This document shows, in pieces, positions 21,632-61,517 of a stretch of DNA of 64,000 nucleotides. The DNA comes from an uncultured Maribacter sp. (GTDB lineage Bacteria; Bacteroidota; Bacteroidia; Flavobacteriales; Flavobacteriaceae). Location of the stretch: positions 7,091 through 71,090 of the forward strand of contig CBDUKE010000002.1 in NCBI GenBank assembly GCA_965367725.1, written 5' to 3'. The number at the start of each line of letters is the position of its first letter. Position 1 is the stretch's first letter. The translations under genes were made by a program, and so were the position numbers. A model generated the notes under the pieces. It worked only from the letters and a program-made list of their open reading frames with translations. It searched no databases and had not been told where the DNA came from.

Positions 21632-21647
21632 TGTAACAAATGTTACA
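21632..21647. promoter_or_regulatory. Palindromic operator TGTAACAAATGTTACA (site 1 of the family)
   Basis: Perfect inverted arms TGTAACA/TGTTACA. The site lies in the divergent region between the membrane protein (ATG 21581) and the class-V aminotransferase (ATG 21840). Confidence 0.6.
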
Positions 21648-21839: not shown

Positions 21840-23342
21840 ATGGGTATTTCGTTACCAGGGCAAAAAACCATATCTACTGATTTGGAAGAATATTTTCAAC
21901 AGTTTAGAAGACACATTGTAGGAGTTGACCAAACTTTCCATTCTCCATACGGAGTGAAAAACATAATTTATGCAGATTGGACTGCTAGTGGCAGGTTATA
22001 TGGTCCCATAGAGCAAAAACTATTTCATGAAATTGGCCCAATGGTTGCAAATACGCATACTGAGACATCCTTTACCGGATCGGTAATGACCATGGCCTAT
22101 CACAAGGCACGCAAAATAATAAAGCAGCATGTAAATGCCAGTGAGGAAGATATACTGATAACGGTAGGAACCGGAATGACAGGTGCAGTAAATAAATTCC
22201 AAAGAATATTAGGGCTTAAGGTATCTGAAAATTTAAAAGAACATACAAATGTACCCGAAGCATTGAGACCTATAGTTTTTGTGTCCCATATGGAGCATCA
22301 TTCAAACCAAACTTCTTGGTTGGAGACCATTGCAAAGGTTGAGGTTATTCCTTGTGATGAAACTGGTTTGATATGTTTTGATAGTTTTCAAAAATTATTG
22401 GACAAGTATCAAGATAACCTTATAAAAATTGCTTCAATAACATCATGTTCCAACGTAACAGGAATTAAAACCGATTACCATAGAATTGCGAAAATGATCC
22501 ATCAAAATAACGGACTTTGTTTCGTTGATTTTGCATGTTCTGCGCCTTACGTGGAAATTGATATGCATCCTAAAAGCAAAGCGGAATATTTAGATGCAAT
22601 TTTCTTTTCTCCCCATAAGTTCTTGGGTGGTCCTGGCGCAAGTGGCGTATTGATATTCAATAAGAAATTATACAAAAATTTGGTTCCCGATAATCCAGGT
22701 GGTGGTACAGTCACTTATACCAATCCATGGGGAAACCACGATTATATTGATGATATAGAGACTAGGGAAGATGGGGGAACTCCAGGATTTTTACAGGCGA
22801 TTCGTGCGGCCTTTGCTATTCAATTGAAAGAAGAAATGGGAGTTAAGAAAATTCATGATAGGGAAAATGAAATAAATAAAACGATTTTTGAAAGTCTTTC
22901 CCAAATAGCTAATTTGCATATTCTGGCCGAGGAGCATCAAGAAAGATTGGGAATATTCTCTTTTTATATTGATGATGCACATTATAACCTGATCGTAAAA
23001 CTATTGAATGATCGTTTTGGCATCCAAACCCGGGGCGGCTGCTCTTGTGCTGGCACCTACGGGCACTTTTTGCTTCATGTAAATGAACTGACCTCAAAAG
23101 CAATAGAGCAGAAAATATTGGAGGGTTGCTTAATGGAAAGACCTGGATGGGTACGAATGTCGATTCACCCAACCATGACCAATGCAGAAGTTGATTTTAT
23201 CTGCAATGCCATAAAACAAGTTGCTTTGAATCATAAGGAATGGGGTAAAGACTATACACAAAATTTGGCCAAAAACGAGTTTGAACACAAAGAAGGCAAT
23301 GTGCAAGAACAAGAATTAGTAAGTAGTTGGTTCAATTCTTGA
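21840..23342 (+). CDS. Class V aminotransferase-fold PLP enzyme (cysteine desulfurase/selenocysteine lyase-like)
   Basis: 500 aa. PLP-lysine motif FSPHKFLGGPGASGVL and overall class-V pattern (SHMEHHSN, GGCSCAG near the C-terminus). Confidence 0.75.
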   Translation: MGISLPGQKTISTDLEEYFQQFRRHIVGVDQTFHSPYGVKNIIYADWTASGRLYGPIEQKLFHEIGPMVANTHTETSFTGSVMTMAYHKARKIIKQHVNASEEDILITVGTGMTGAVNKFQRILGLKVSENLKEHTNVPEALRPIVFVSHMEHHSNQTSWLETIAKVEVIPCDETGLICFDSFQKLLDKYQDNLIKIASITSCSNVTGIKTDYHRIAKMIHQNNGLCFVDFACSAPYVEIDMHPKSKAEYLDAIFFSPHKFLGGPGASGVLIFNKKLYKNLVPDNPGGGTVTYTNPWGNHDYIDDIETREDGGTPGFLQAIRAAFAIQLKEEMGVKKIHDRENEINKTIFESLSQIANLHILAEEHQERLGIFSFYIDDAHYNLIVKLLNDRFGIQTRGGCSCAGTYGHFLLHVNELTSKAIEQKILEGCLMERPGWVRMSIHPTMTNAEVDFICNAIKQVALNHKEWGKDYTQNLAKNEFEHKEGNVQEQELVSSWFNS

Positions 23343-29536: not shown

Positions 29537-29709
29537 TTTTTTACATTGATAATTTCTTGGTTATAAACCTAAAAAAAAGCTTAAAAAGACTAATTTAAAC
29601 TTAAAAATAAGGGTATTTTAAAAGTAATCACAATAAACATTTTTAATTTGGATTTAGGACGTTATTTTTGAGATCTCCAAATGAATTAATAAGGCGTTAC
29701 CAGATAATC

Positions 29710-30342
29710 ATGATCAAAGAACTGCAAGAAAATTACGGACATCTTTTTGAAGAGGAATTGATAAATGAAATTATCCAGACAGGAACGTATCGGGAAATTC
29801 GTGAAGGTCATAAACTTATGGAAATTGGCGATTATGTAAAGTCCATGCCACTGCTGATATCCGGAGTTATTAAAGTGTTAAGGGAAGATGGCGATGGTGA
29901 TGAATTACTTTTATATTTTCTAGAGCATGGCGATACTTGTGCCATGACACTTACTTGTTGCGTGGGGCAAACCAAAAGCGAGATAAGGGCTATTGCGGAA
30001 ACCAATGCAAAACTGATTATGATACCCGTCCAAAAAATGGAAGAATGGTTGGCAAAATATAGTAGTTGGCGCAATTTTGTGTTGCAGAGTTATCATAATA
30101 GGTTAAATGAAATGCTCGAAACTGTGGATAGCATTGCCTTTCTGAAAATGGATGATCGCCTGCTAAAATATATTAAGGACAAAGCCCGTGTAAACAATGA
30201 TAGTACGATAAGTACAACACATCAGCATATTGCATATGAATTACATACTTCAAGGGTAGTTGTTTCGAGATTGCTTAAAAAATTGGAGAATCTAGGAAAA
30301 ATAGAACTTCATAGAAACCAGATCAAATTAAACGATGATTAA
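29710..30342 (+). CDS. Crp/Fnr family transcriptional regulator
   Basis: The listed TTG at 29668 is unlikely, and ATG 29710 (MIKELQENYG...) gives the usual ~210 aa. It has a cNMP-binding-like beta-roll, and C-terminal HTH HQHIAYELHTSRVVVSRLLKKLENLGKI. A cysteine cluster C77-x5-C83-C84 (TCAMTLTCC, nt 29938-29961) is present. Confidence 0.85.
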   Translation: MIKELQENYGHLFEEELINEIIQTGTYREIREGHKLMEIGDYVKSMPLLISGVIKVLREDGDGDELLLYFLEHGDTCAMTLTCCVGQTKSEIRAIAETNAKLIMIPVQKMEEWLAKYSSWRNFVLQSYHNRLNEMLETVDSIAFLKMDDRLLKYIKDKARVNNDSTISTTHQHIAYELHTSRVVVSRLLKKLENLGKIELHRNQIKLNDD

Positions 30343-30401: not shown

Positions 30402-30428
30402 AAAGACTGATATTTATCAGTCTTTTTT
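30402..30428 (+). terminator. Intrinsic terminator after the Crp/Fnr gene
   Basis: Stem AAAGACTGAT / ATCAGTCTTT with a 4-nt loop, followed by a T-tract. Confidence 0.6.
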
Positions 30429-30448
30429 ATTTGGGAAACCCTGAGATT

Positions 30449-30464
30449 TGTAACCAATGTTACT
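30449..30464. promoter_or_regulatory. Palindromic operator TGTAACCAATGTTACT (site 2)
   Basis: The GTAAC-N4-GTTAC core is intact. It lies 57 bp upstream of the ATG at 30521 (MBL remnant, then rhodanese). Confidence 0.55.
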
Positions 30465-30520
30465 TTACACTTCGTTATTCTATTATAATTTTATACCGTT
30501 AACTGTATCATCTTGTAAAC

Positions 30521-30721
30521 ATGGGAATTGAACAAATTTGTACAGGCTGTTTGACCCATGCAGCTTTTTATTTGGAGCGAAAAGGTGAAGCTGCAATTTT
30601 TAATCCATTACACAAGGTTCAACCTTATTTTGATAGGTCAGCATATATTGGTCTGACTACCCTTGCTATGGCTGGTGCAATAGTTTGTTCAAGTTGGATG
30701 TATGGGAGAGACAATTACTAA
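30521..30721 (+). pseudogene. Remnant of an MBL-fold persulfide dioxygenase-like gene (N-terminal ~40 codons, then unrelated sequence)
   Basis: MGIEQICTGCLTHAAFYLERKGEAAIFNPLHKVQPYFDRS resembles, from memory, the conserved N-terminus of ~470-aa Bacteroidota MBL-fold/rhodanese proteins (M.IEQIYTGCLAQGAYYI...GEAAIIDPLREVQPY.DRA). The HxHxDH metal motif and everything after it are missing, and the ORF ends after 66 aa. Confidence 0.4.
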
Positions 30722-30769
30722 AATTGCCCTTCCCCAATTACAAAAGGAAAAAAATAAATATAAAGAAAT

Positions 30770-31111
30770 ATGTCATTTTTAAGTTCACTTTTTGGGGGTA
30801 GTGCCCTTAACTCGGATAAGTTCGAAGTCCTTGATAAAAACGCTTATAAAGTTGCCATTCGGCAAAAGAAAGTACAATTGGTCGATGTTAGAACTCCTAG
30901 GGAATATAAGGGTGGGCATATTGGAAAAGCAATTAATATAGATCTATTCCAAAGAGGAAGTTTTAAGCAGGCTTTTGAAAAATTGGATAAGAACAAACCT
31001 GTTTATCTATACTGTAGGACGGGAAGTAGAAGTAGAAAGGCGGCCCAGAAAATTTTGGATATGGGATTTGAAAAAGTTTATGATCTAAAAGGAGGTTATA
31101 TACATTGGTAG
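30770..31111 (+). CDS. Rhodanese-like domain protein (single domain, active-site Cys)
   Basis: VDVRTPREYKGGHIGKAINI and the active-site loop YCRTGSRSRKAA, then KGGYIHW at the C-terminus. Confidence 0.85.
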   Translation: MSFLSSLFGGSALNSDKFEVLDKNAYKVAIRQKKVQLVDVRTPREYKGGHIGKAINIDLFQRGSFKQAFEKLDKNKPVYLYCRTGSRSRKAAQKILDMGFEKVYDLKGGYIHW

Positions 31112-33670: not shown

Positions 33671-34549
33671 TCAGTCCTTTTTAGACTTACCAAAGCCATA
33701 TATGTTTTGGTGGATAAAATCTTTGGGAAATTTTTCGTCCCCAGGAAAGCCCAATTCAATTGTACCACTATCCTCCGGTATATAATTGGTCTTAAAAATG
33801 TAATCCCAAAGACTTAGACTAATTCCGAAGTTTACACCATAAGTATCTTTAGGGAGGGCATATACATGATGGTACAAATGCATTACCGGATTATTAAAAA
33901 TATATTTTAATGGACCCCATGTTATTTTAATATTGGCATGATTCAAATGTCCAATAGTAATAGCAATAAAATGCACGATATACGCCTGTTCAGGTTCAAA
34001 ACCACCTAAAACCATAACGCCAAGTGTTTTTAAAGGTTTATAAATGATATTTTCCATCCAGTGGTAACGTAAGTGTGCCGCAAAACCCATTTCCTTAACG
34101 GAATGGTGCACCTTGTGGAATTTCCATAAAAAGGAATACTTATGAAGTAATACATGGGTGAACCATTGTACAAAGTCAAGAATTATAAAGAAAATCAGCA
34201 ATTGGGCCCAGGCCGGAAGGGCAGAAAGGTCCAATAAAGTTAGGCTCTTTGAGGAAACTCCTAAATCATTGAAAAGTAAACCCAATAATTTATAAAAACC
34301 ACTTACTGCAATAGCAAATAAGAAGAAGTTGAAATACATATAAAATCCATCCAACCAAAAATCCTTCCTAAAAATAGATTGGTTCTTTCGCCAAGGGAAG
34401 GCGATTTCAAGGCCCCAAACGATTAAAGAAATAACAGTAAGCCCCCAGAAGTAATTCGTATACCAGGGAACATCAAAAAGTATTGATTTCCATGTCCAAT
34501 CTACGCTACCCATGAATGAGTTAACAAAAGCATCTAAGTATTTTTCCAT
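33671..34549 (-). CDS. Fatty acid hydroxylase / sterol desaturase family membrane protein
   Basis: Histidine boxes HVLLH, HKVHH and HLYHH in a polytopic membrane protein. Confidence 0.8.
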   Translation of the reverse strand: MEKYLDAFVNSFMGSVDWTWKSILFDVPWYTNYFWGLTVISLIVWGLEIAFPWRKNQSIFRKDFWLDGFYMYFNFFLFAIAVSGFYKLLGLLFNDLGVSSKSLTLLDLSALPAWAQLLIFFIILDFVQWFTHVLLHKYSFLWKFHKVHHSVKEMGFAAHLRYHWMENIIYKPLKTLGVMVLGGFEPEQAYIVHFIAITIGHLNHANIKITWGPLKYIFNNPVMHLYHHVYALPKDTYGVNFGISLSLWDYIFKTNYIPEDSGTIELGFPGDEKFPKDFIHQNIYGFGKSKKD

Positions 34550-34598: not shown

Positions 34599-35072
34599 TT
34601 ATTCTTTGAGGGCATACCACTCAATATCTTTTAAAACCTCTCTTCTGCCTTTATTTACTGGTGGGTAGTTGGCAACTAGGTAATCTACTATAATATCCTC
34701 ATTATTGCCTAAATCCCATAGATTTTGAGTCTCTTGCATCCAGCGTATTGTGCTGATCCATCTTTCTTTATTCATTCGATTTTGGGTGACCAGCTTGGCA
34801 GAATGGCAATTCGTACAATTATTGACCACGGCCATGAGTCCTTCGGCCTCTACCAAACCTGTGCGAACATGTATGCCATTTTCTATTTTATCGTAATCAT
34901 CTTCCTCAACCACGGCGATATACTCAGCTTCGGGTTTGGATTTTTCAAATAGGTTTGGGTTCGACAAAAGGTATAGCACGGAAAGTGCAGCTACTGCAAA
35001 CAAACCAAAAAGACCTACCATCAGGCGATATATTGCCCTAACTTGTTGTTTGAATTTTTTGTGATCCTCCAT
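34599..35072 (-). CDS. Membrane-anchored monoheme cytochrome c, SorB-like partner of the molybdoenzyme
   Basis: N-terminal TM helix and a single CTNCH heme motif. Its start lies 3 nt after the stop of the sulfite-oxidase-like gene. Confidence 0.6.
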   Translation of the reverse strand: MEDHKKFKQQVRAIYRLMVGLFGLFAVAALSVLYLLSNPNLFEKSKPEAEYIAVVEEDDYDKIENGIHVRTGLVEAEGLMAVVNNCTNCHSAKLVTQNRMNKERWISTIRWMQETQNLWDLGNNEDIIVDYLVANYPPVNKGRREVLKDIEWYALKE

Positions 35073-35074
35073 GC

Positions 35075-36295
35075 TTATGTAACCTTTATGGCAATTCTAT
35101 GACAAGCATTGTTGAGATAACCTTTAGGATTCCAACCTGGTAAAAGCATAGGTTGACTTATTCCTCTAGCGTCGGTTGCTCTTGCCCAAACTTCGTAATA
35201 TCCTTTTTTTGGAAAATCAATACTAGCTGTAAAATGCTGCCATGCCAAACGGTTTGCTGGTTTTTCGATGGGGCATTCTTTCCAAGTTGAACCAAAATCT
35301 ATTGAGTATTCCATTTTTGGAACTTCCAATTCCCCTGCCCATGCATGCCCTCTAATATTTAATTTTTTTCCTTTGGTAATCGTCGCACCGGATTTAGGAT
35401 AGGTAATCAAGGATTTTACGGGCATCGATTCTATGATACACATATCCTCATCTTTTACTTTCTCCCCTGGGGCCACTGGATTACAAGGTACACGATATGC
35501 ATCGCCGGTCATTTTGGTTCCATCGTGAACTATATTACGTACACTGATACGGTTAACCCATTTGCCCGAAACAGAAGCTGGCCAACCACCAGCAACTAAC
35601 CTTAAAGGGTAACCATGGGCCAACGGAATATCCTCACCATTCATTTTGAATGCAATCAGGGTCTCATCCTGCATTGCTTTTGGTATAGGGGCACCCCGGG
35701 ATATAGGTTCTTTTTTTGGATCTCTACTTAGATGTACATCGGCTGCATGAAAACCTATGTAGACGGCATCACTTTTTAAGCCTACATCCTCAAGAATATC
35801 GCGCAATCGCACACCAGTCCAAGTGGCACTGGATACAGCTCCGATCGTCCATTGATTTCCTTTGGCAGGGGGGTCAAATTCGCTTCGGCCATTCCCACCA
35901 CATTCCAATGTTAATTGGTAAGTGTGTTGCGGAAACTTTGATTTTAGCTCAGCAAGTGTATATGTTTTTGACTGTTTGGCCGATTCACCATCAATAGTCA
36001 ACGTCCATTTACTCGCATCAATATCTTCTGGAATGAGTCCATTATTACGTATGAACATGAATTTGTTGGGCGTGATTTTATCATCCAATAAATGTGCTTT
36101 GGCTTCAATATTCCAAGGTTTGTCATTGAGTACGACCATTTCCTTATCTTTGTCGAACATCTTAAAGGGGTCGGGGTCTTGTAATGCCAATGGTTGATAC
36201 CCTTCTGGCAGCACATTGCCAAAAACAATATCGGCTCCGATAACAGTGGTCATAGTGCCTAAAACCGCTTTCCTAACAAAGTTTCTTCTTTTCAT
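35075..36295 (-). CDS. Tat-exported sulfite oxidase/dehydrogenase-family molybdopterin enzyme (SorA-like)
   Basis: I prefer the internal ATG at 36295 (MKRRNFVRKAVLGTMTTV, twin-arginine) over the listed start at 36358. Mo-ligand region LTLECGGNGRSEF and a C-terminal dimerisation-domain-like region. Confidence 0.8.
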   Translation of the reverse strand: MKRRNFVRKAVLGTMTTVIGADIVFGNVLPEGYQPLALQDPDPFKMFDKDKEMVVLNDKPWNIEAKAHLLDDKITPNKFMFIRNNGLIPEDIDASKWTLTIDGESAKQSKTYTLAELKSKFPQHTYQLTLECGGNGRSEFDPPAKGNQWTIGAVSSATWTGVRLRDILEDVGLKSDAVYIGFHAADVHLSRDPKKEPISRGAPIPKAMQDETLIAFKMNGEDIPLAHGYPLRLVAGGWPASVSGKWVNRISVRNIVHDGTKMTGDAYRVPCNPVAPGEKVKDEDMCIIESMPVKSLITYPKSGATITKGKKLNIRGHAWAGELEVPKMEYSIDFGSTWKECPIEKPANRLAWQHFTASIDFPKKGYYEVWARATDARGISQPMLLPGWNPKGYLNNACHRIAIKVT

Positions 36296-36350
36296 TTTGT
36301 TTGTTGAAGTTCTTGATTTCCGAAAATAAGCATTTTTTGGTTTTATAAAA

Positions 36351-36366
36351 TGTAACAAATGTTACA
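36351..36366. promoter_or_regulatory. Palindromic operator TGTAACAAATGTTACA (site 3, identical to site 1)
   Basis: An exact 16-mer repeat of site 1. It lies 56 bp upstream of the SorA-like ATG and just downstream of the DsrE operon terminator. Confidence 0.6.
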
Positions 36367-36437
36367 GTAGTCCATTTTGAGGATATATACAATTAAAATT
36401 AAGCAAGTTTAATTTGAAATAGCTGTTTTTTTGATGA

Positions 36438-36465
36438 AAAAATGGGGGCCTTGGCCCCCATTTTT
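36438..36465 (-). terminator. Intrinsic terminator of the SQR-TusE-DsrE operon
   Basis: GC-rich stem ATGGGGGCC/GGCCCCCAT. On the minus strand it is followed by TTTTTT. Confidence 0.7.
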
Positions 36466-36565
36466 ACTTGAATATTTAGTTATAGAAGTACGCTTATATA
36501 AATAATAGATGTAAAGCCTTTCTCTATTTTCTCTGTTTTGGAAATCACCAATAGTTAAAATATTT

Positions 36566-37096
36566 TTATGTAAAAATGATATTAGTTCTGTCGCCACTAC
36601 ACAATTCATAAAATTCACCAATGGTAATTATACTATCAACTTCATCAGACAAATCTTCTTTCTTTAATTTGAACATATCAACGGCAAGCTTACACGCATA
36701 AATGGTACCGCCGCCCGCAGTGATCATTTCCAAAAATTCATCTACTGGAGGCATATCCAACGCTTCCATTTGTTTTCTCATCATACCTGAAACCGCAGTT
36801 TCTACTCCTGGCAATCCGCCAAGCATTGTAGGGAAAGGTAAACCTCCAGGCATTTTCATTGCCGGGTTACCGGTTGTTGCAGTATGCAAGTGGTTCATTG
36901 ATTTTTTAGTAATGCCTTCAAGACCAAAAAAAGTAAAGAACATATTGGTTTCTATTCCTTCCATTACAGCTCCGTTAGCCATGACCAGGGTAGCATAAAC
37001 ATCTTCTAATGCTCCCTTAGCACATATAATACAAACTTTCTCTAAAGGTTTTTTCTCTTTTGTGTCCATTTTTTTTTCTATTGTTTGTGTTTCCAT
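36566..37096 (-). CDS. DsrE/DsrF/DrsH-like family sulfur-relay protein (COG2210-type)
   Basis: 176 aa. Cys-containing segments KVCIICAKGALEDVY and GGTIYACKLAVDMF are typical of this family. Confidence 0.7.
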   Translation of the reverse strand: METQTIEKKMDTKEKKPLEKVCIICAKGALEDVYATLVMANGAVMEGIETNMFFTFFGLEGITKKSMNHLHTATTGNPAMKMPGGLPFPTMLGGLPGVETAVSGMMRKQMEALDMPPVDEFLEMITAGGGTIYACKLAVDMFKLKKEDLSDEVDSIITIGEFYELCSGDRTNIIFT

Positions 37097-37137
37097 CTTT
37101 TTATTTATTAATTATTAAAAACTACTAATAAAGTTAA

Positions 37138-37446
37138 CTATATGCAACTGGTTGGTTTAGGGATTCCTGCTATTTTTGATGAGAATTTTAAAGGCCCCTT
37201 TGGAAACAATTTATATAATCCTTTAATATCAACAATACCTGATTTTCCTACTTTTCTTATAGTTAAAGCTTCTTTTGCGGCTGTTTTTTCACGCAAATAA
37301 TGTAACACTTCAAAGTGTTTATCAGTCAATTCAATATCTAATTCTTTTGCTATTTCCCTAGCAATATCCTCATTCCACTGAGACATATCCTTAAGGTATC
37401 CATCTTCCGATAAATCAACTTTGATTCCTGCTAATACTGATTCCAT
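37138..37446 (-). CDS. TusE/DsrC/DsvC family sulfur relay protein (single C-terminal Cys, TusE-like)
   Basis: 102 aa. DGYL..MSQWNEDIA, HFEVLHYLRE, and a C-terminus GIPKPTSCI with the penultimate Cys. No second Cys lies ~10 residues upstream. Confidence 0.8.
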   Translation of the reverse strand: MESVLAGIKVDLSEDGYLKDMSQWNEDIAREIAKELDIELTDKHFEVLHYLREKTAAKEALTIRKVGKSGIVDIKGLYKLFPKGPLKFSSKIAGIPKPTSCI

Positions 37447-37468
37447 AATAATATTTGTTTTATTGTTT

Positions 37469-38701
37469 TTAATTTATTTTTTTTCCTTTTAAACTCATAT
37501 TTCTACTTACCATTGGTATGGGTATTCCTTTCAAAAGCATATTCCAATAAATCCACCTAAAAGCCAATTTACCCCAATGGTTGAATATACTTTCCTTTAA
37601 AAGCCTTAGAGGGCCTATACCTGCAATAGGGAAGGTGCCTTCTAAAGGTTCGTACTCGTAATTAAAATCAATTAAAAGTGCTTTGTTTTTGCCAGTTTCA
37701 ATAAAACAATTGGCATGGCCATCAAATTCCTCTTTTAAAGGTTTACCATCAATATACAATAAAATATTATCTGTTAAAGTTTCAGATGCAAAATGGGCAA
37801 CTGAGCCAGCTTTGGATGCGGGGACATTGGTAGCGTCACCGATTACAAATACATTTTCATGATCTATTGATTGTAATGTGCTATTATGTGTAGGCACAAA
37901 ATTTAATTCGTCACCCATACCTGAGCGTTCAATTACTTCATCGCCCATATTAGTAGGCACCGTTACAAGTAGATCGAAGTCAACCTTTCTCTCACCAAAA
38001 TCAATTATTTGATTGGTATCATTATCCACGCTTTCAATATTGAAATCAGTAACGACATTAATATTCTTTTCTTTCATTAAATGACCAAGAGCGGCTGTAG
38101 CTTTAGGTTTTGTGAATGCTCCACCAAGTGGGGTCACATATGTTAGTTCAACTTTGTCTCTCATTCCTTTTTTTGTGAAATAAGAATCGGCCAAGAAAAC
38201 GAATTCCAATGGTGCTACAGGGCATTTAATGGGCATTTCGGTAAAGTGAACGACCATTTTACCACCTTCCCATTCCCTTAATTTATTCCTAAGTGCCAAA
38301 GCACCTTCATAGGTGTAAAAATCAAAAACATTCTTATGCCAATTTTCACCTTTCATCCCTTCGGTTTCCTGTGGTGCAATTTTACAGCCTGTTGCAACAA
38401 TTAAAATATCATACTGTAAGGTTTCATCCTCTAATTGAACTTTGTTTTCTTCAGGAAAAATTTGTTCAATTTTCTTTTGAATATAGTTGACACCTTTGGG
38501 AATGAATTTATTACCCACTTTTTTTACCTGCTCTTCTGTATAGATATCAAAAGGTAGGAATAGGAATCCAGGCTGATAATAATGTGTTTTGTATTGATCT
38601 ACGATTGTAATTTTCCATTCTTTTTTCGGCAGTTTTTTCACCAAATGATTTGCCATCATCGTTCCTGACGTACCTGCACCTAATATCAATAAATTTTTCA
38701 T
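37469..38701 (-). CDS. Sulfide:quinone oxidoreductase-family FAD flavoprotein (SQR-like)
   Basis: GAGTSG dinucleotide fold, PIKCPVAPLEF (SQR-type Cys loop) and VFVIGDATNVPASKAGSVA. 410 aa. Confidence 0.7.
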   Translation of the reverse strand: MKNLLILGAGTSGTMMANHLVKKLPKKEWKITIVDQYKTHYYQPGFLFLPFDIYTEEQVKKVGNKFIPKGVNYIQKKIEQIFPEENKVQLEDETLQYDILIVATGCKIAPQETEGMKGENWHKNVFDFYTYEGALALRNKLREWEGGKMVVHFTEMPIKCPVAPLEFVFLADSYFTKKGMRDKVELTYVTPLGGAFTKPKATAALGHLMKEKNINVVTDFNIESVDNDTNQIIDFGERKVDFDLLVTVPTNMGDEVIERSGMGDELNFVPTHNSTLQSIDHENVFVIGDATNVPASKAGSVAHFASETLTDNILLYIDGKPLKEEFDGHANCFIETGKNKALLIDFNYEYEPLEGTFPIAGIGPLRLLKESIFNHWGKLAFRWIYWNMLLKGIPIPMVSRNMSLKGKKIN

Positions 38702-38818: not shown

Positions 38819-38834
38819 TGTAACATTTGTTACA
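38819..38834. promoter_or_regulatory. Palindromic operator TGTAACATTTGTTACA (site 4)
   Basis: Perfect arms. It lies in the 380-bp divergent region between the SQR operon (ATG 38701) and the FadL-like OMP (ATG 39082). Confidence 0.6.
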
Positions 38835-39081: not shown

Positions 39082-40497
39082 ATGAGAAAAACATTTCTTA
39101 ATTTATCGTTTCTAATTTTTGCGACTGCTGCTTTAGCGCAGTCGGGTCACATTATGCAGGGTGTTGGGGCTGTTAATATGTCAATGGGGGGTGCATCAAC
39201 TGGGCAACCCTTGGATATTTCCGGTGCACTACAATGGAATCCTGCTTCAATATCAACCTTTGATGATAAAATCTTAAAGTTTGATATTGGTTTATTCTTT
39301 TCATCTCCTGAATTATCTTCAACATTTGGTCCTTTAAGTGGAACAACAGCAGATGATAGGCCCCTATCGCCTATGCCGGCAATAGCCATGGTCTGGGGTA
39401 AGGAGGGCAGCAAGCATACTTTTGGTGCTTCTGCATTCGGTATTAGTGGTTTTGGCGTTACATTTCCTGAAAACACTAATTATCCGCAAGATCTACAAGG
39501 AAACCCAAACCCTAACTTTGATCAAACAGCAGCTGTTAATCCAATAAATTTCCCTCAATTTGCAGGAGGTTTTGGTAGAATTGAATCTGATTATATGTTA
39601 TTGCAAGTCGGCTTTACCTGGGCTTATGAATTATCGGATAAATTTTCAATTGGTGTAGAGCCAACTTTTAACTATGGAGCATTAGAGCTAGCACCTAACC
39701 CATTAGCCTCACCAAGTCAAACTTTAGGTTATCCAATTTCGGATAAAGCTTCTGCGATTGGTTTTGGCGCACAATTTGGTTTATTCTATGATTCAGGTAC
39801 TGGTTTTAAAGCTGGGGCTTCCTATAAAACAAACCAATCTTTTAGTGAACTTGAATTTAAGAACACTTATTTGGATGGCTCTGCAGCGCAAGACGTTAAT
39901 TTCCAAATGGATTATCCTTCAATTTTATCCTTTGGTTTAGGTTATTCTAATGATGCAATTGACTTAGCTCTAGATTATAGAATGGTAAATTATGAGAATA
40001 CAGAGGGTTTTGAAAAAAGTGGATGGACAATTGCTGAAAGTGGGCAGTTTGCTGGATTCCCTACTGGATCAGTTCAAGGATTTGGATGGGAAAATATCTC
40101 GATCATTTCTGCTGGTTTACAATATAAAGGTGTAGATAAATTACCTTTGAGAGTTGGGTATACTTATAGTTCAAATCCTATTAATGAAGAATTAACATTT
40201 TTCTCTGTTCCAGCAACAGCAATTATTAAAAATGCCTTCCAATTCGGATTAAGTTATGAAGTAGATGAAAACTGGAAACTTGATGCTGTTTATCATTACG
40301 GTTCAAGTGGTGATGCTACATCTGGGCAATTATTAAATCCAACTCCTGATCAAGATTTTAATGGTGATGGAAATCCGGATGGACCTTGGAATGCAAATAC
40401 TAATCCGTTAGGAGCTATTCCAGGAAGTGAAGTGTCTTACGAAATGACAACATCTATGATACAATTTGGTGTTAGTTATACCTTTGCCAAAAAGTAA
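39082..40497 (+). CDS. Outer membrane transport protein, OMPP1/FadL/TodX family
   Basis: Signal peptide. N-terminal GVGAVNMSMGGASTG hatch-like motif, alternating beta-strand pattern and a terminal aromatic residue (YTFAKK). Confidence 0.7.
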   Translation: MRKTFLNLSFLIFATAALAQSGHIMQGVGAVNMSMGGASTGQPLDISGALQWNPASISTFDDKILKFDIGLFFSSPELSSTFGPLSGTTADDRPLSPMPAIAMVWGKEGSKHTFGASAFGISGFGVTFPENTNYPQDLQGNPNPNFDQTAAVNPINFPQFAGGFGRIESDYMLLQVGFTWAYELSDKFSIGVEPTFNYGALELAPNPLASPSQTLGYPISDKASAIGFGAQFGLFYDSGTGFKAGASYKTNQSFSELEFKNTYLDGSAAQDVNFQMDYPSILSFGLGYSNDAIDLALDYRMVNYENTEGFEKSGWTIAESGQFAGFPTGSVQGFGWENISIISAGLQYKGVDKLPLRVGYTYSSNPINEELTFFSVPATAIIKNAFQFGLSYEVDENWKLDAVYHYGSSGDATSGQLLNPTPDQDFNGDGNPDGPWNANTNPLGAIPGSEVSYEMTTSMIQFGVSYTFAKK

Positions 40498-56486: not shown

Positions 56487-56885
56487 CTATTCCTTTAAAG
56501 TACGTACATAATTAACTACCAACCACATATCTTCTACTTCTGGAATCTTTTTTTCGTAATTTGGCATATCGTCCCTTCCTATATAACTCTTATAGAAAAT
56601 TGCTCCATCAGATTGTGCCTGAAATTTGGCGGTAGAGAAATCACCCAAATCTCCTTCTACTTCATCAGCTTTGGTTCCATCACCATAACCTTCTTTTCCA
56701 TGACAGGATTTACAATGCTTGTTGTAGAGCGATTTTCCTATGTCCAAGTCAACAGTAGGATCTGTCGGATTTTTCATTTTTTCATATTTTTCAGGGACTT
56801 TCCATTCTTCTTGCACCATAGAGGTAAAGGAATACAAAGCAAATGATACGATTCCGATAAGTAATAAAGTCTTAAATGTTTTCAT
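56487..56885 (-). CDS. Secreted monoheme class I c-type cytochrome
   Basis: Signal peptide, CKSCHGKEG heme motif and a downstream Met (DDMPNY). Confidence 0.8.
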   Translation of the reverse strand: MKTFKTLLLIGIVSFALYSFTSMVQEEWKVPEKYEKMKNPTDPTVDLDIGKSLYNKHCKSCHGKEGYGDGTKADEVEGDLGDFSTAKFQAQSDGAIFYKSYIGRDDMPNYEKKIPEVEDMWLVVNYVRTLKE

Positions 56886-56959
56886 AAGTTTAATATATAT
56901 TGATTTTAATTCTTTCTTTTCAAAAATAGTGCCGAATTGGCTTTTTTTTTTAAAAGGTT

Positions 56960-57862
56960 TTAATCACTCTCTGTTTTTATGGCTAATTCTGTTCCTTCTT
57001 TTCTAATCTTGAATAAGTTGATGATTGTGTATACATAATTTGCCCAAACACCTACCAATAAGATGGTTAATACGGCATACATCCAAATTGGTGCCGCTTC
57101 GGACCACAACGTATTATTTTCAACCTTAATTTGTTTGTTGAAAACACCCCAATTTACTATTTTCTTTTGAATTACATTTCCAAATTCATCGTGGTCCTCG
57201 ATACTTGTATAAACGACAAGGTCACCATTAATATCCCCAGGGATGTCTGTTGGCATTTCAAACTCATAAACACCATTTTCGATGGTGCCTTCATTAACGT
57301 TCATTTTAGAAAGCATGCCGCCTACTGAAATGAAAACATCGGCCTCTTCCAAAGGTATTTTCACACCCAAACTATCAAGGGTGTATGCCTTTACTACGGC
57401 GGTTTTAACACTATCTTTTTCGATTAAGTTTAATTCTAAATTCAGATCTTGAACACTGATTTCCTCTTCTTCACCATCCAATCCATCTGAACCTTCAAAA
57501 ATTGCTTTAAAATTTATTTTTCCCTCGCTATCGACCAAGTAATCATGATCCTTGGGAATTGTAATTTGGGCGACTCCATCTTTAGAAGTTTTTGAAACTC
57601 CCAACAGGACTTCCTCATCTTCCCATACATTAAAAAATTTAATCTCTGCCTCATAAACAGGAACCCTGTCTTTTCTATCTTCTTTGTTTGCAGCAATAAA
57701 ACTTGCCTCAAGTATTCTTGTATTATCGGGTTGCTTAATTGTGTTACAGTTAAACCTTATTCGATAATTACTTAAATCAACTTCTTGGGATTGGGCATTT
57801 GTAGCAATGAACAACCCAAATAACACCATTATGACCGTATATCTAAACAAACTAGTTTTCAT
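56960..57862 (-). CDS. Unknown secreted, C-terminally membrane-anchored protein (X1), third gene of FeS-NrfD module 1
   Basis: Signal peptide, beta-rich body and a C-terminal TM helix (PIWMYAVLTILLVGVWANYVYTIINLF). It overlaps the NrfD stop by 4 nt. It is a paralog of 60645-61517 (shared EDEEV.LG...T...G block and the same topology). Confidence 0.55.
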   Translation of the reverse strand: MKTSLFRYTVIMVLFGLFIATNAQSQEVDLSNYRIRFNCNTIKQPDNTRILEASFIAANKEDRKDRVPVYEAEIKFFNVWEDEEVLLGVSKTSKDGVAQITIPKDHDYLVDSEGKINFKAIFEGSDGLDGEEEEISVQDLNLELNLIEKDSVKTAVVKAYTLDSLGVKIPLEEADVFISVGGMLSKMNVNEGTIENGVYEFEMPTDIPGDINGDLVVYTSIEDHDEFGNVIQKKIVNWGVFNKQIKVENNTLWSEAAPIWMYAVLTILLVGVWANYVYTIINLFKIRKEGTELAIKTESD

Positions 57863-59208
57863 TTTTGTTGATTTTGGGTAAGGTGTTTATGACTAATTCT
57901 AACTTTGTGCTCTCTTTCGTAATCAATGATACCTGACATAGGTATAATGGGTACAAGTTTCATGATCAAAATAAAGAACAAAACAAAGGCTGCTAACCCT
58001 GCAAAACTCAATGCCCATTCAACCCAGGTGGCTGTGTAATGTATAAACTCCGGTCGCGTATCCTGGATTGGCAAATAGGGTGTTTCCAGAGTGGGTACCA
58101 CTATTAAATATCTGTTTAACCATAACCCCAAAACGGCAATAACAGCTGCGAAGGTGATGGATTTTATAGTTCTGAATTTTTTAAAGAATATAATGACTAT
58201 GGGCACTAATACACCAATGTAATTTGCAAAAATAAATTCCCAAAAATACCGGGTAAAAAGGGTATCCAACAGATTTATATCATGAATCTTATGGCTAAAC
58301 CACCTAGAAAAATATTCACTAAATGTAAAGTAGCCGAACAACAATGAAATAACCAAAAGAATAACCCCCGCACCTATAAAATGTACTTTGCGAATGTAAT
58401 GGTCCAACTTTAAATATTTTCGAATAAGGAACATGGCGATAATGATCACACTAATGCCAGAGTACAGGCCTGCGACAATAAAATAAGGTGCAAAAATAGT
58501 ACTGTTCCATCCGGGTTGTAGCGTTAAACTGAATATCCAGGCCAAAACGGTATAAGCAACAATAGCCAAAGCAATGATCATGGCAGACATAGTTCGGGTT
58601 ATTTTATGTAACCTTACGCGTTGGGTGGGGGTGTCCTGATAACCAATAGCCAAAGTTTTGTATAGTTTCTGCCTCCAATTAGGTGCATCTTCACTATTAT
58701 CGCGAAGCATTGCAAAATCAGGGATAAATGTTAGATAGAGGTAAATAAAACAGCCTATCAAATCTGTGATAATGGCGATAATATCCCAAGTAATCGGTGA
58801 TTGTATCCTAGGGTAAATAAACAGATAATGTAACCTATCCAACCTGCCGATACATAACAAAATAAATATAGGACCTACAATCAAGGATAGTACGGTAATT
58901 ATTTCAACGATTCTGGAAACTGAATTCTTCCAGGGTGTTTTAAAGAAGTGTAATATTCCTGAAATGAATGCCCCAGAATAGCTTAAACAAACAAAGAAAA
59001 TAAAATTAATAATGTAAATACCCCAGACCACATTGTCACGCATTCCAGTAACTTCATGTCCTTTTACAACTTGAAGCACAAATGCGACCAAACCCAATAA
59101 AACAAATCCCAATAAAATTCCAATCCATATTTTTGACCATTTGCTCGATTTTAGCAACATTGGTAAAAATTCTTTGACTAACTCCCTTTTCCTAACATCT
59201 ATATCCAT
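57859..59208 (-). CDS. NrfD/PsrC family quinone-interacting membrane subunit (module 1)
   Basis: 449 aa polytopic membrane protein with an NrfD-like helix pattern, adjacent to an NrfC-like FeS protein. Confidence 0.75.
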   Translation of the reverse strand: MDIDVRKRELVKEFLPMLLKSSKWSKIWIGILLGFVLLGLVAFVLQVVKGHEVTGMRDNVVWGIYIINFIFFVCLSYSGAFISGILHFFKTPWKNSVSRIVEIITVLSLIVGPIFILLCIGRLDRLHYLFIYPRIQSPITWDIIAIITDLIGCFIYLYLTFIPDFAMLRDNSEDAPNWRQKLYKTLAIGYQDTPTQRVRLHKITRTMSAMIIALAIVAYTVLAWIFSLTLQPGWNSTIFAPYFIVAGLYSGISVIIIAMFLIRKYLKLDHYIRKVHFIGAGVILLVISLLFGYFTFSEYFSRWFSHKIHDINLLDTLFTRYFWEFIFANYIGVLVPIVIIFFKKFRTIKSITFAAVIAVLGLWLNRYLIVVPTLETPYLPIQDTRPEFIHYTATWVEWALSFAGLAAFVLFFILIMKLVPIIPMSGIIDYEREHKVRISHKHLTQNQQK

Positions 59209-59217
59209 AGTAAAGAG

Positions 59218-60210
59218 TTATTTAGTTTGAATTTTACCCTTTGCTTTAAGGTCTTGAACATAAGGCACATCTTTATAGCGTTCAATAATTTCCTCATCAA
59301 CATCAAAACCGCGTTCCAACGGGAATTGTCGGTTAACTGCAGGCAGATAGTATACATTGGGTTTTGTGCCCAGATGCTCTAAGTGTCTGTAACCTCCCCT
59401 GTCATTGATCAATTCTGAGAACCGGACAGTTTCTTCGCCGTTCGTTACCATATCCTCATTCTTATCACCGAAGTAAATTACACCCATGGGGCATGCTGTT
59501 GCACAATGAGGCAACTTGCCTTGGCGAAGCATGTCTGGACAAAAATCACATTTCATTACAGTACCTTCTGCAGCCGGGACACTGGTTTCAGGAGAATAGG
59601 GTTGGTCCGTATCATCAAACTTGGCTTTGTGACTCCAATTGAACTGACGAGCCGAATAAGGGCAACTTGTAATACAGAATTTACATCCTATGCAGCGGTC
59701 ATTATCAATTAGAACGATGCCGTCATCGCGCTTAAAAGTAGCCCCTGTGGGGCAAACCGTTACACATGGTGGTTCGTCACAATGAAAACAAGGTTTAGGA
59801 AACCAGTAAGGGGAAGTTTCTTCATTGTTCTGAATAAGCTGCACTTTCATAAACTCTTCATGGTAGTCGAGATTATGTGCTTTTTGACAACTTTCAACAC
59901 AATTTCTGGCATTTTTACATTTGGCCAAGTCAATGACCATCACAAATTTTCTGTTAGGAATTCCCTCTCTTGATTCAGCCGGCGTTATATGTGCTTCGGG
60001 ATACTTATTAATACTTTCAGCATCTACCTCGACCATTTTACCATCAGAGGTCAGTACACGAATTTTTTCGCCAGAGGCTTTTAGTTCTTCGGGGGATGAC
60101 AAATTTGAAAGAAACGAAGCGCTTGCAACTGTAGTCACACCTGATAATAATCCTAGCTTTAAGAATTTACGCCTATTGGTGCTATCATTTTGTGTTTTAT
60201 CGTTCGCCAT
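59218..60210 (-). CDS. Tat-exported 4Fe-4S ferredoxin-type subunit (NrfC/PsrB/HybA-like, module 1)
   Basis: Twin-arginine signal (NRRKFLKLGLLSG). Cluster motifs CKNARNCVESC (3 Cys), CFHCDEPPCVTVCP, CIGCKFCITSCP and CDFC...CATACP. Confidence 0.8.
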   Translation of the reverse strand: MANDKTQNDSTNRRKFLKLGLLSGVTTVASASFLSNLSSPEELKASGEKIRVLTSDGKMVEVDAESINKYPEAHITPAESREGIPNRKFVMVIDLAKCKNARNCVESCQKAHNLDYHEEFMKVQLIQNNEETSPYWFPKPCFHCDEPPCVTVCPTGATFKRDDGIVLIDNDRCIGCKFCITSCPYSARQFNWSHKAKFDDTDQPYSPETSVPAAEGTVMKCDFCPDMLRQGKLPHCATACPMGVIYFGDKNEDMVTNGEETVRFSELINDRGGYRHLEHLGTKPNVYYLPAVNRQFPLERGFDVDEEIIERYKDVPYVQDLKAKGKIQTK

Positions 60211-60282
60211 AATTCTAAGAATACATATATAATTATATGTTAATTTGAAAGTCTAAAATTAGGTTTTACTATTACTTTTAAA

Positions 60283-60298
60283 TATGACAATTATCATA
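60283..60298. promoter_or_regulatory. Second palindrome type TATGACAATTATCATA, promoter-proximal to FeS-NrfD module 1
   Basis: It matches 38789-38804 at 14 of 16 positions. It has the same relative position, between the GTAAC site and the operon start. Confidence 0.4.
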
Positions 60299-60301
60299 TT
60301 T

Positions 60302-60317
60302 GGTAACATATGTTACA
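60302..60317. promoter_or_regulatory. Palindromic operator GGTAACATATGTTACA (site 6)
   Basis: The GTAAC-N4-GTTAC core is perfect. It lies 92 bp upstream of the FeS subunit ATG (60210). Confidence 0.55.
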
Positions 60318-60644
60318 TAAGCTCAAATCTGTTCTTTTATCCTTCGGAATCTTGGGGATTTTCAGAAACAAACCATATCAAAATTGGCATTTATTCGTAA
60401 AGTTTGCGCTCCAATTTTTAATTTGTATTTTGTTGAAAGATTATGAAAATCAGAGGTTTCCAGAGTTTTATTCCCTAAAGGTTTTCAAACTTAGGAATCT
60501 TGTTGCTTATGTTGAATCTGCAATTTCAACTAAACCTTAATTTAGTAACAGGGTTACCAGTTTTTCTATTATAATGCAAAAATAGCGAACAAATTATTCG
60601 ATATTTTTATCTCGGCATATTTAAAATTATAACTTCTTGGAATG

Positions 60645-61517
60645 CTAAAATTTTGCTATTTTAAATAAATTCAGTGTTAAATAAATAATAAAAACCCATA
60701 TACCAAATATTATTAAATTTGGCAATATAAGCAGGAATAAAGGTGTTTTATTTCTTGGCGACCACATGGTTCGTTGATCAAAAGTTGATTCATCAACTAT
60801 TGGCGTTCCAATAGGAGCATTAACCAAAGCTTTTACAGTCCCATATTTATCACTATCATTTAAAACCACTTCAAAAGTCAAGTTACCATCGACCCCAGGT
60901 ATTTCTTCTTCGATAGGTACGGTTATAGATCCATTTTCATCGGTATAATTAAATTCCTCACCAATTCTTAGGGGCATAAACAACCGCTGTACCAGTACAT
61001 CCAATGATTCTCCAATAATTGGACTGCCTGTACCAGCATCAATCAGGGTTGCTGTCATATAATTAATACTGTCCTTAGTGACTAGATTGGCTTTAATATT
61101 CGCATTTTTGAAACTAATTTTTTTTGAAGCTCTCTTATAGGAGTCGTTACCCTTAAACGAAACACCTAGATTATAGGTATTCGTTGAGTCAGGTTGAATA
61201 GTGCTCAAATTTTTGAATACAAATCTACTTTCACCTTTTATATCAGTAGTTGTATTTCCCAATATAACTTCCTCGTCTTCAAATCCATAATAAACGGAAA
61301 TAGGAATATCTGAAACCCCGATATTCCGTTTTTCTATTTTTGCAGTAGCTTTAATTTTCAAATAAATGTCACCTTCCATTATTTTAACATAATCAGCTCC
61401 TAATCTAATTCTGTTTTTTTCAGTTTCCTGTGCGTACAAATTCTGAAAACCTATTGTAAATAGTAACAAACCCAGGAATCCAAGTAAAATCATGCGAAAT
61501 TTTATTCTATTTTTCAT
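60645..61517 (-). CDS. Unknown secreted, C-terminally membrane-anchored protein (X2), third gene of FeS-NrfD module 2
   Basis: Paralog of X1 with a signal peptide, beta-rich body and C-terminal TM (PLFLLILPNLIIFGIWVFIIYLTLNLF). It overlaps the NrfD stop by 4 nt. Confidence 0.55.
   Translation of the reverse strand: MKNRIKFRMILLGFLGLLLFTIGFQNLYAQETEKNRIRLGADYVKIMEGDIYLKIKATAKIEKRNIGVSDIPISVYYGFEDEEVILGNTTTDIKGESRFVFKNLSTIQPDSTNTYNLGVSFKGNDSYKRASKKISFKNANIKANLVTKDSINYMTATLIDAGTGSPIIGESLDVLVQRLFMPLRIGEEFNYTDENGSITVPIEEEIPGVDGNLTFEVVLNDSDKYGTVKALVNAPIGTPIVDESTFDQRTMWSPRNKTPLFLLILPNLIIFGIWVFIIYLTLNLFKIAKF

Follow-up and report, generated by a model that had tools for sequence, protein, structure and literature searches.

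Proteins that relay sulfane sulfur have been described beside sulfide:quinone reductase (SQR) in several bacteria. In Staphylococcus aureus, the cst operon (tauE-cstA-cstB-sqr, with the repressor CstR) combines a sulfide-induced SQR and a rhodanese-fused persulfide dioxygenase (PDO), CstB, with carriers of the Tus/Dsr type, CstA being a rhodanese-TusA-TusD fusion whose cysteine thiols accept sulfane sulfur (PMC9163753; PMC5480029). In Cupriavidus pinatubonensis SQR carries a fused rhodanese (DUF442) that accepts the sulfane sulfur and restricts how much of it accumulates (PMC9163753), and in Methylacidiphilum fumariolicum SolV a type III SQR is co-transcribed with a TusA homologue and DsrE2 (MFUM_v2_0219-0221) and up-regulated by sulfide, the role of the carriers not being addressed in that report (PMC10205796). 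In Allochromatium vinosum, TusA, DsrEFH and DsrC form a relay to the reverse DsrAB, where DsrE- and DsrC-family proteins are consecutive cytoplasmic carriers of cysteine persulfide (PMC11094781). As for sulfite, SorAB of Starkeya novella and SorT are Tat-exported enzymes with a molybdenum (Mo) domain and a dimerisation domain, a Mo-ligand cysteine motif and an adjacent monoheme cytochrome c. Here we report the analysis of a related locus at positions 34,599 to 38,701 of a 64,000-nucleotide stretch of DNA (hereafter the window) from an uncultured Maribacter sp. of the Flavobacteriaceae (assembly GCA_965367725.1, contig CBDUKE010000002.1), in which the genes of an SQR, a TusE-like protein and a DsrE-like protein are followed by those of a sulfite-oxidase-family enzyme and a cytochrome c. 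We find that SQR-TusE-DsrE is an obligate module in Flavobacteriaceae, and the locus is, with fair probability, the core of a sulfide-detoxification/oxidation island of this family controlled by the palindrome GTAAC-N4-GTTAC.

Given the cst, Cupriavidus and Methylacidiphilum systems, sulfur-relay proteins beside SQR are not new in kind, and the differences lie in the components. Compared with cst, the SQR of the window is of type III rather than type II, its carriers are separate DsrC/TusE-family and DsrE2B-like proteins, the regulator is probably of the Crp/Fnr and not of the CsoR type, a periplasmic sulfite dehydrogenase is added, and the PDO is unlinked. The first carrier of Methylacidiphilum is TusA-like, whereas here it is DsrC/TusE-like and no TusA is found in the genome assembly. 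The SQR::DsrC fusions described below follow the same logic as the Cupriavidus fusion; however, in these a DsrC-family domain with a C-terminal cysteine arm is placed at the C-terminus of SQR, while the Cupriavidus rhodanese is placed at the N-terminus, and the SQR types differ. Unlike in Allochromatium, neither DsrA nor TusA is found in the assembly, the carrier has one of the two DsrC cysteines, and there is a single DsrE2B-like gene instead of DsrEFH; moreover, sulfur would pass here from enzyme to carrier, and there it passes from carrier to enzyme. Finally, the Mo enzyme of the window falls far below the SorA and SorT equivalog cut-offs and is slightly closer to animal sulfite oxidase, its cytochrome neighbour differs from SorB in having about 157 residues with an N-terminal membrane anchor, and a fatty-acid-hydroxylase-family gene comes next.

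According to the ORF (open reading frame) listing, six minus-strand ORFs lie within 38701-33671, and the genes, coordinates, terminator and palindromic operator given in a first-pass annotation of this sequence are all as it described them, judging from the ORF listing, direct folding and operator counts. That annotation assigned the flavoprotein to SQR with the caution that it might prove a non-SQR family member. The assignment holds, since the protein passes the curated cut-off of NF049943 (type III SQR in the Marcia classification) with 659.7 bits against 525, covering model positions 1-406 of 406, and both catalytic cysteines are aligned. The FAD Rossmann motif is found at residues 6-12, and the catalytic cysteines are Cys159 (MPIKCPVAP) and Cys333 (GHANCF), which align to both catalytic cysteine motifs of the best PDB matches, human SQOR (E 3e-47) and then other SQRs. 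Both motifs are kept in 80 of 80 relatives, and they match the canonical type III positions, for which the cable-bacteria numbering is Cys159 and Cys339 (PMC13047784). In a selenoprotein subtype of SQR, selenocysteine in HxxU takes the position of H-A-N-C333. Judged by its sequence, the flavoprotein is thus a real type III SQR, with a predicted quinone-reducing activity. Type III SQRs of Caldivirga and other organisms oxidise sulfide with quinone (as cited in PMC10205796), and type III is the most abundant SQR class in a marine sediment survey, with 1,814 of 2,593 SQR sequences (PMC12345210).

The second gene encodes a member of the DsrC/TusE/DsvC superfamily, which scores above the cut-offs of PF04358 (E 9e-27, 94 bits against 24.9) and TIGR03342 (80.4 bits against 53.5), aligns end to end with DsrC structures, and has the C-terminal arm with a penultimate cysteine. 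This Cys101 (..PKPTSCI) is the sole cysteine of the protein, with a serine in place of the second DsrC cysteine, and 77 of 78 relatives retain the C-terminus PKPxSC[IL], the remaining one being a truncated sequence. The TusE equivalog is not reached (NF008562, 66.8 bits against 191). Nor is the protein a DsrC, which would have two C-terminal cysteines and DsrAB as its partner, because the second cysteine is a serine and no match to dsrA is found in the assembly (3.2 Mb, 222 contigs, 92% complete). TusA (PF01206) is not found in this assembly either, and it holds only one other gene of the DsrE/TusD family (PF02635; G000:C57:15050-15433), TusBCD not having been searched as such. The first-pass description of a TusE/DsrC-like protein with a single C-terminal cysteine therefore stands, while the name TusE is too specific for a protein that misses the equivalog in a genome where TusA and DsrAB are not found. 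A TusE of tRNA thiolation was rejected for the lack of a TusA match and the missed cut-off (again with TusBCD not searched as such), and a reverse-Dsr role was rejected for the lack of a dsrA match and the single cysteine.

The third gene encodes a DsrE-like protein with 93.1 bits in PF13686 (E 2e-26, cut-off 25), which does not reach the DsrE2 equivalog (NF047629, 93.9 bits against 210). Its conserved cysteine lies in IYACKLAV and is present in every variant listed, with the context (W/Y)(A/G)CKLA conserved throughout the relatives. The closest solved relative is 2qs7 (E 9e-15, active-site cysteine aligned), which is an archaeal DsrE2B (PMC11094781). The TusE-like and DsrE-like genes are present in one copy each in the genome. 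Because of this, and with neither TusA nor dsrA found and only the one other DsrE/TusD-family gene in the assembly, the two carriers have no obvious partner other than SQR.

We then present the distribution of the three genes in the family. The survey of SQR-TusE-DsrE neighbourhoods, which the first-pass annotation had proposed, covers 80 loci retrieved by SQR with 75-97% identity to that of the window, from Aequorivita, Gillisia, Lutibacter, Salinimicrobium, Maribacter, Winogradskyella, Polaribacter and other genera. The triad is constant throughout, the TusE-like gene following SQR at about +1.25 kb and the DsrE-like gene at about +1.6 kb in all 80 loci, save where the contig ends first. In a sample of 201 Flavobacteriaceae genomes, one per genus (mutually related, hence not independent), SQR is present in 30, and the DsrE-like gene is present in exactly those 30, always adjacent, and in 0 of the other 171.

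Outside the family, a search of 1.8 billion representative proteins gave 484 SQR relatives at E<=1e-30, among which the DsrC-family partner is also found as a part of the enzyme. Two of them, P0004 (581 aa, 52% identity) and P0030 (562 aa, 37%), are SQRs with a C-terminal DsrC-family domain, which follows a low-complexity linker, ends with ..GCV or ..GCI and has one cysteine only. A DrsE_2 gene comes directly after each fusion on its contig, and on one contig (L118) there are two such pairs in tandem. Clustered at 90% identity, proteins with the fused SQR::DsrC architecture make up at least 25 clusters, with members from Mobiluncus curtisii, Mobiluncus porci and Actinomycetaceae, where the proteins are named 'TusE/DsrC/DsvC family sulfur relay protein' by NCBI; on the whole, the fusions are found in Actinomycetaceae and in metagenomic lineages. 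Unfused SQR-DsrC-DrsE_2 and SQR-DsrC arrangements also occur, adjoining ArsR-type regulators. Of ten type III SQRs taken as more distant representatives, a DsrC partner accompanies four, fused in two cases, and DrsE_2 is present with three. In the literature covered, which leaves out subscription-only papers, we found no description of the flavobacterial triad with its obligate DsrC/TusE-family partner, nor of the SQR::DsrC fusion.

The strict co-occurrence (30 of 30 against 0 of 171), the synteny, the invariant carrier cysteines and the natural fusions together support the view that SQR hands its sulfane sulfur directly to a carrier protein, a step that would be added to the PDO and not replace it. 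The first-pass annotation had raised a non-canonical hand-off from SQR to DsrE/TusE; this gains independent support as an extra layer rather than as a substitute for PDO.

DsrC-family proteins insert a flexible C-terminal arm with a penultimate cysteine into the active site of a partner, as is established for DsrAB/DsrC. By analogy, the fusion and the strict linkage suggest that such an arm may remove sulfane sulfur from the Cys159/Cys333 site, with the DsrE2B-like protein as next carrier or buffer. We tentatively propose, as a possibility somewhat short of an even chance, that the type III SQRs of this clade use a dedicated single-cysteine DsrC-family acceptor whose arm enters the active site and which is backed by the DsrE2B-like protein, instead of giving polysulfide to small thiols. 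The SQR is probably cytoplasm-facing, because no signal peptide is recognisable in any of the three proteins, SQR starts directly with the FAD-binding fold, and the DsrC-family domain is, to our knowledge, cytoplasmic in every known system. In the proposed scheme, the membrane-bound SQR would oxidise H2S with quinone and build sulfane sulfur on Cys159/Cys333; this sulfur, instead of leaving as free polysulfide, would be taken by the DsrC/TusE-family protein at the penultimate cysteine of its flexible arm and then be passed to, or buffered by, the DsrE2B-like carrier. The carriers would then deliver it to a CstB-like PDO, which would yield sulfite or thiosulfate. In the periplasm, sulfite would be oxidised to sulfate by the Tat-exported enzyme of the sulfite-oxidase family together with its membrane-anchored cytochrome c. 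We infer the direction and order of transfer, the link from carriers to PDO and the identity of the regulator; the downstream fate via PDO and Mo enzyme is likewise inferred from probable co-regulation and from the fuller islands of relatives.

Some further observations concern the SQR genes. The operon of the window is a mosaic when compared with L019/L020 and L052/L065: the window SQR is 91-92% identical to that of Aequorivita-type loci, where TusE and DsrE are only 53-61% identical to those of the window, while the window TusE and DsrE are 78-92% identical to the Lutibacter/Maribacter arenosus type, for which the identity of SQR is no more than 77-80%. It seems that the two carrier genes were exchanged together, as a unit. 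A second SQR-like gene, 26% identical to that of the window, is found between sorA and the dsrE-like gene in the island of one relative, G150 (L124:9464-10696). In addition, some distant type III SQRs have a CBS-domain protein, fused or following, instead of DsrC/DsrE (P0009; L127:2702-3196; L128:2629-2892).

The features of the locus and of its surroundings in the window are collected in Table 1.

Table 1. Position, strand and supporting evidence of features in and around the SQR locus (window coordinates).
Feature	Position	Strand	Evidence or remark
Type III sulfide:quinone reductase, 410 aa	37469..38701	-	NF049943
DsrC/TusE-family sulfur carrier, 102 aa	37138..37446	-	PF04358, TIGR03342
DsrE2B-like sulfur carrier, 176 aa, soluble	36566..37096	-	PF13686 DrsE_2
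Intrinsic terminator between DsrE-like and SorA-like genes	36436..36467	-	12-bp G+C-rich stem, CAAG loop, U tract
Operator palindrome TGTAACAAATGTTACA	36351..36366	.	56 nt 5' of SorA-like start
Periplasmic sulfite-oxidase-family molybdoenzyme, 406 aa	35075..36295	-	PF00174 E 3e-51, PF03404 E 3e-18
Membrane-anchored monoheme cytochrome c, ~157 aa, CTNCH	34599..35072	-	Weak SorB match, N-terminal anchor
Fatty-acid-hydroxylase-family membrane protein, last gene of SorAB unit	33671..34549	-	PF04116 E 2e-24
Operator palindrome TGTAACATTTGTTACA	38819..38834	.	118 nt 5' of SQR start; region shared with divergent FadL-type gene
FadL/TodX-type outer-membrane channel, divergent from SQR operon	39082..40497	+	PF03349 E 2e-17
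Crp/Fnr-family regulator, candidate palindrome binder	29668..30342	+	cNMP_binding + HTH_Crp_2; likely start ATG 29710
Operator variant TGTAACCAATGTTACT	30449..30464	.	Precedes PDO remnant; homologous operator before intact island PDO in L123, L124
Deletion scar of island PDO, 66 codons	30521..30721	+	Codons 1-40 PDO-like (30521-30640)
Single-domain rhodanese, 113 aa	30770..31111	+	PF00581 E 5e-22

The PDO is where the pathway had appeared incomplete. The first-pass annotation saw a remnant as the only PDO-like sequence in the window, and this is borne out: the match is confined to the first 40 codons of the scar, which have 52.5% identity to residues 1-40 of an intact PDO. The segments 30410-30637 and 30720-31109 of the window each align to one of the flanks of the PDO gene that is intact in a related island (L123), and about 82 bp of unrelated sequence (30638-30719) replaces about 1.35 kb of PDO. 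The deletion is not an assembly artefact, because the closest relative (L016) shares the loss. In a complete genome of the same genus (G046), the island consists of FadL, SQR-TusE-DsrE, SorA-SorB-hydroxylase and cytochrome-HMA-rhodanese-PDO, where the PDO is intact and has its own operator; the G150 island has the same gene set plus a Crp-type gene. In both, operator, PDO and rhodanese stand complete precisely where the window has its scar, and the rhodanese comes after the PDO (L123 and L124). The absence of PDO from the island is therefore a lineage-specific deletion and not a design feature.

A PDO encoded elsewhere, the other possibility raised in the first-pass annotation together with a search of the full genome, is indeed present. 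Among the nine genes with a metallo-beta-lactamase domain in the whole assembly, one (G000:C67:11998-13407, 469 aa) is a CstB-like PDO with one Lactamase_B domain followed by two rhodanese domains. The whole protein can be aligned to 3tp9 (E 5e-69) and to 3r2u (E 1e-55), the S. aureus CstB-type protein, and also to ETHE1-type PDOs; the metal motif ETHFHADF (HxHxD) is aligned and the rhodanese cysteine loop CAAGYRS is present, so that the protein is by sequence a CstB-type PDO with predicted dioxygenase activity. About 55 nt 5' of its start there is the operator variant GGTAACTAATGTTACT, with the core GTAAC-N4-GTTAC kept. Among 20 other Flavobacteriaceae sampled, 8 have this core 5' of their PDO orthologue, whether or not they carry SQR, for a chance expectation of about 0.0005 per 400 bp (our own estimate from the computed base composition). 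Overall, a CstB-like PDO is found in 198 of the 201 genomes: PDO is a core gene and the island copy is redundant. An intact PDO elsewhere behind the operator was the result that, according to the first-pass annotation, would make the pathway canonical, and in its components it is so: the route from SQR through PDO to sulfite dehydrogenase is canonical in its parts.

The triad and the SorAB unit form separate transcription units, and each has an operator of its own. The terminator hairpin between them has -20.4 kcal/mol (z -5.1) in direct folding and is equalled in 0 of 200 shuffles; a consensus terminator scan did not list it. The exact 16-mer TGTAACAWWTGTTACA has three copies in the assembly, all in the window, before sqr, sorA and a class-V aminotransferase gene. 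When one mismatch is tolerated, the window has seven copies where 0.18 would be expected, and the genome has ten copies of the core GTAAC-N4-GTTAC, about 3.7 being expected; six of the ten are on the window contig. The core is present 5' of SQR in 50 of 78 related loci, nearly always at -136 to -68 from the start, and the position of the sorA operator is also occupied in L016, L123 and L124. The conservation before sqr is a phylogenetic footprint. The operator is real and defines a regulon. The palindrome is probably bound by the adjacent regulator of the Crp/Fnr type, whose gene adjoins the island PDO or its scar in L016 and L124, and of which a homologue is located about 2.8 kb upstream of SQR in Lutibacter loci. 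Two paralogues are present in the genome (G000:C9:14624-15241, 46% identical, and G000:C81:1854-2423, 33%). SQR and PDO are both in the genome and both have the core upstream. A common regulator of SQR and the core PDO is likely, although the outer bases of the operator before PDO differ and the Crp paralogue on C9 is a second candidate binder. The divergent FadL-type gene is found in the same position in about 20 of the 80 loci.

Other operator copies lie outside the sulfide genes. An exact copy at 21632-21647 precedes the gene of the 500-aa class-V aminotransferase, which is cysteine-desulfurase-like (21840-23342). Two tandem modules on the minus strand at 56487-63816 contain DsrO-like FeS proteins (62833-63816 and 59218-60210), NrfD/DsrP-like membrane proteins (61514-62836 and 57859-59208) and a third protein of about 290-300 aa each (60645-61517 and 56960-57862), with a cytochrome c (56487-56885) ending the second module. 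The variant GGTAACATATGTTACA at 60302-60317 precedes this second module, which may belong to the same regulon. Further cores outside the island are found at G000:C133:58, C135:4174 and C141:560, the first near a FeS/flavin disulfide-reductase-like gene and the second near a multihaem cytochrome gene.

In the SorAB unit, the ORF listing starts the Mo enzyme at TTG 36358. The ATG at 36295 is the better start, because the TTG overlaps the operator and the ATG yields a Tat N-terminus with the twin-arginine KRRNFVRK. The enzyme matches chicken sulfite oxidase (E 8e-54), SorA 2blf (E 6e-45) and 4pw3 (E 3e-40), with the Mo-ligand cysteine in LECGGNGR aligned to the CAGNRR motif of the chicken enzyme. 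It has all the marks of the sulfite-oxidase fold, that is, Mo and dimerisation domains, the Mo-ligand cysteine motif, a Tat signal and a haem partner; thus the name 'SorAB-like' used in the first-pass annotation is right at the level of the fold, and not at the level of the SorA, SorT and SorB equivalogs. The cytochrome c is the presumed electron acceptor and is conserved next to SorA in L016, L123 and L124, where the fatty-acid-hydroxylase-family gene always comes after SorB. Another gene of the latter family adjoins a type III SQR of only 39% identity on an unrelated metagenomic contig (L122:2778-3614). The adjacency of SorAB to the triad is found only in the nearest relatives (L016, G046, G150). 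SorA is present in 57 of the 201 genomes, 16 of 30 with SQR and 41 of 171 without, often next to PDO, and it adjoins PDO or SQR in many genomes.

The picture of an island whose SQR passes sulfur to protein carriers ahead of PDO has to be weighed against other explanations. The pathway may be canonical with a relay that is non-essential, where polysulfide from SQR reaches PDO through low-molecular-weight thiols and the carriers only buffer, scavenge or report to the regulator. A PDO with fused rhodaneses that is present here and near-universal in the family suits this well, rhodaneses in sqr-pdo operons are reported to limit sulfane-sulfur accumulation without being essential (PMC9163753), and DsrE4-type proteins are proposed to detoxify reactive sulfur species (PMC11094781). 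However, the strict co-occurrence in all SQR-bearing genomes and in none of the others weighs against it. In several lineages, moreover, the DsrC domain is covalently joined to SQR, which suggests a partner dedicated one-to-one to the enzyme rather than a general buffer, so that we consider this explanation unlikely. It is very improbable indeed that the flavoprotein, instead of oxidising sulfide, reduces a disulfide or persulfide of the TusE-like protein in the manner of CoA-disulfide reductase. Its membership of the broad pyridine-nucleotide-disulfide oxidoreductase superfamily (PF07992) and its link to a cysteine-bearing carrier would fit such a role; yet its score exceeds the curated cut-off for type III SQR, the solved structures closest to it are all SQRs with both SQR cysteines aligned, and it is probably co-regulated with the oxidative enzymes PDO and sulfite dehydrogenase. 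Since its translation has three cysteines only (105, 159 and 333), none is placed where the N-terminal redox cysteine of CoA-disulfide reductases would sit, and this reading of the flavoprotein was rejected.

The carried sulfur might also bypass PDO altogether, either through oxidation by a different enzyme of the regulon or through export or storage in the form of elemental sulfur, with PDO serving endogenous persulfides only. For oxidation the DsrO/DsrP-like modules (56960-63816) are candidates, one of them having an operator copy before it, and the FadL-type channel might serve export or storage. The island PDO is lost here and in L016 while the triad is kept, no PDO is located within 8 kb in any of the 80 loci, and fused forms are found in Actinomycetaceae such as Mobiluncus, organisms of oxygen-poor habitats, to which a PDO that depends on O2 brings little benefit. 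Methylacidiphilum, moreover, converts sulfide to elemental sulfur (PMC10205796). Nevertheless, PDO is present in 29 of the 30 SQR-bearing genomes, in the fuller islands PDO, SorAB and the triad lie side by side behind the same operator, and DsrA is not found in the assembly (sHdr was not searched for). In addition, DsrO and DsrP face the periplasm and the membrane and are present without the cytoplasmic DsrK, which handles DsrC in DsrMKJOP. A bypass of PDO is therefore quite improbable.

Several points also weigh against the island reading with its hand-off. The assembly is 92% complete. The equivalog cut-offs of the sulfite dehydrogenase are missed (SorA 225.6 bits against 600, SorT 186 against 570, SorB 28.1 against 93). 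The 46%-identical Crp paralogue on C9 has an almost identical recognition helix, and the operator before the core PDO on C67 differs in its outer bases. PDO is near-universal regardless of SQR, hence it is no proof that PDO receives sulfur from the triad. The remaining distant type III SQRs pair with CBS-domain proteins, with rhodanese and YeeE, or with nothing; therefore the DsrC/DsrE partnership marks one clade and not the whole of type III. Finally, synteny and fusion demonstrate functional coupling, and not the chemistry or direction of transfer.

As to the meaning for the family, an island without PDO is ordinary, the gene loss being tolerable through the second copy. The conserved palindrome before SQR, PDO and SorAB across the family points to a sulfide/persulfide regulon under a protein of the Crp/Fnr type, a regulator family from which we know of no sulfide or persulfide sensor. 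The acceptor of SQR sulfane sulfur is still debated among glutathione, sulfite, rhodanese and free polysulfide, and no SQR class has been studied less than type III. For one large clade, a DsrC-family partner that is obligate and sometimes fused offers a concrete and testable answer, and it gives proteins of the DsrC/TusE type a role outside dissimilatory sulfite reductase and tRNA thiolation. If the proposal of a dedicated acceptor is true, there would be a class of SQR that forms protein persulfide, present as a separate triad in Flavobacteriaceae and as an SQR::DsrC fusion in Actinomycetaceae and other lineages, and some of the fusion lineages may have no O2-dependent PDO at all.

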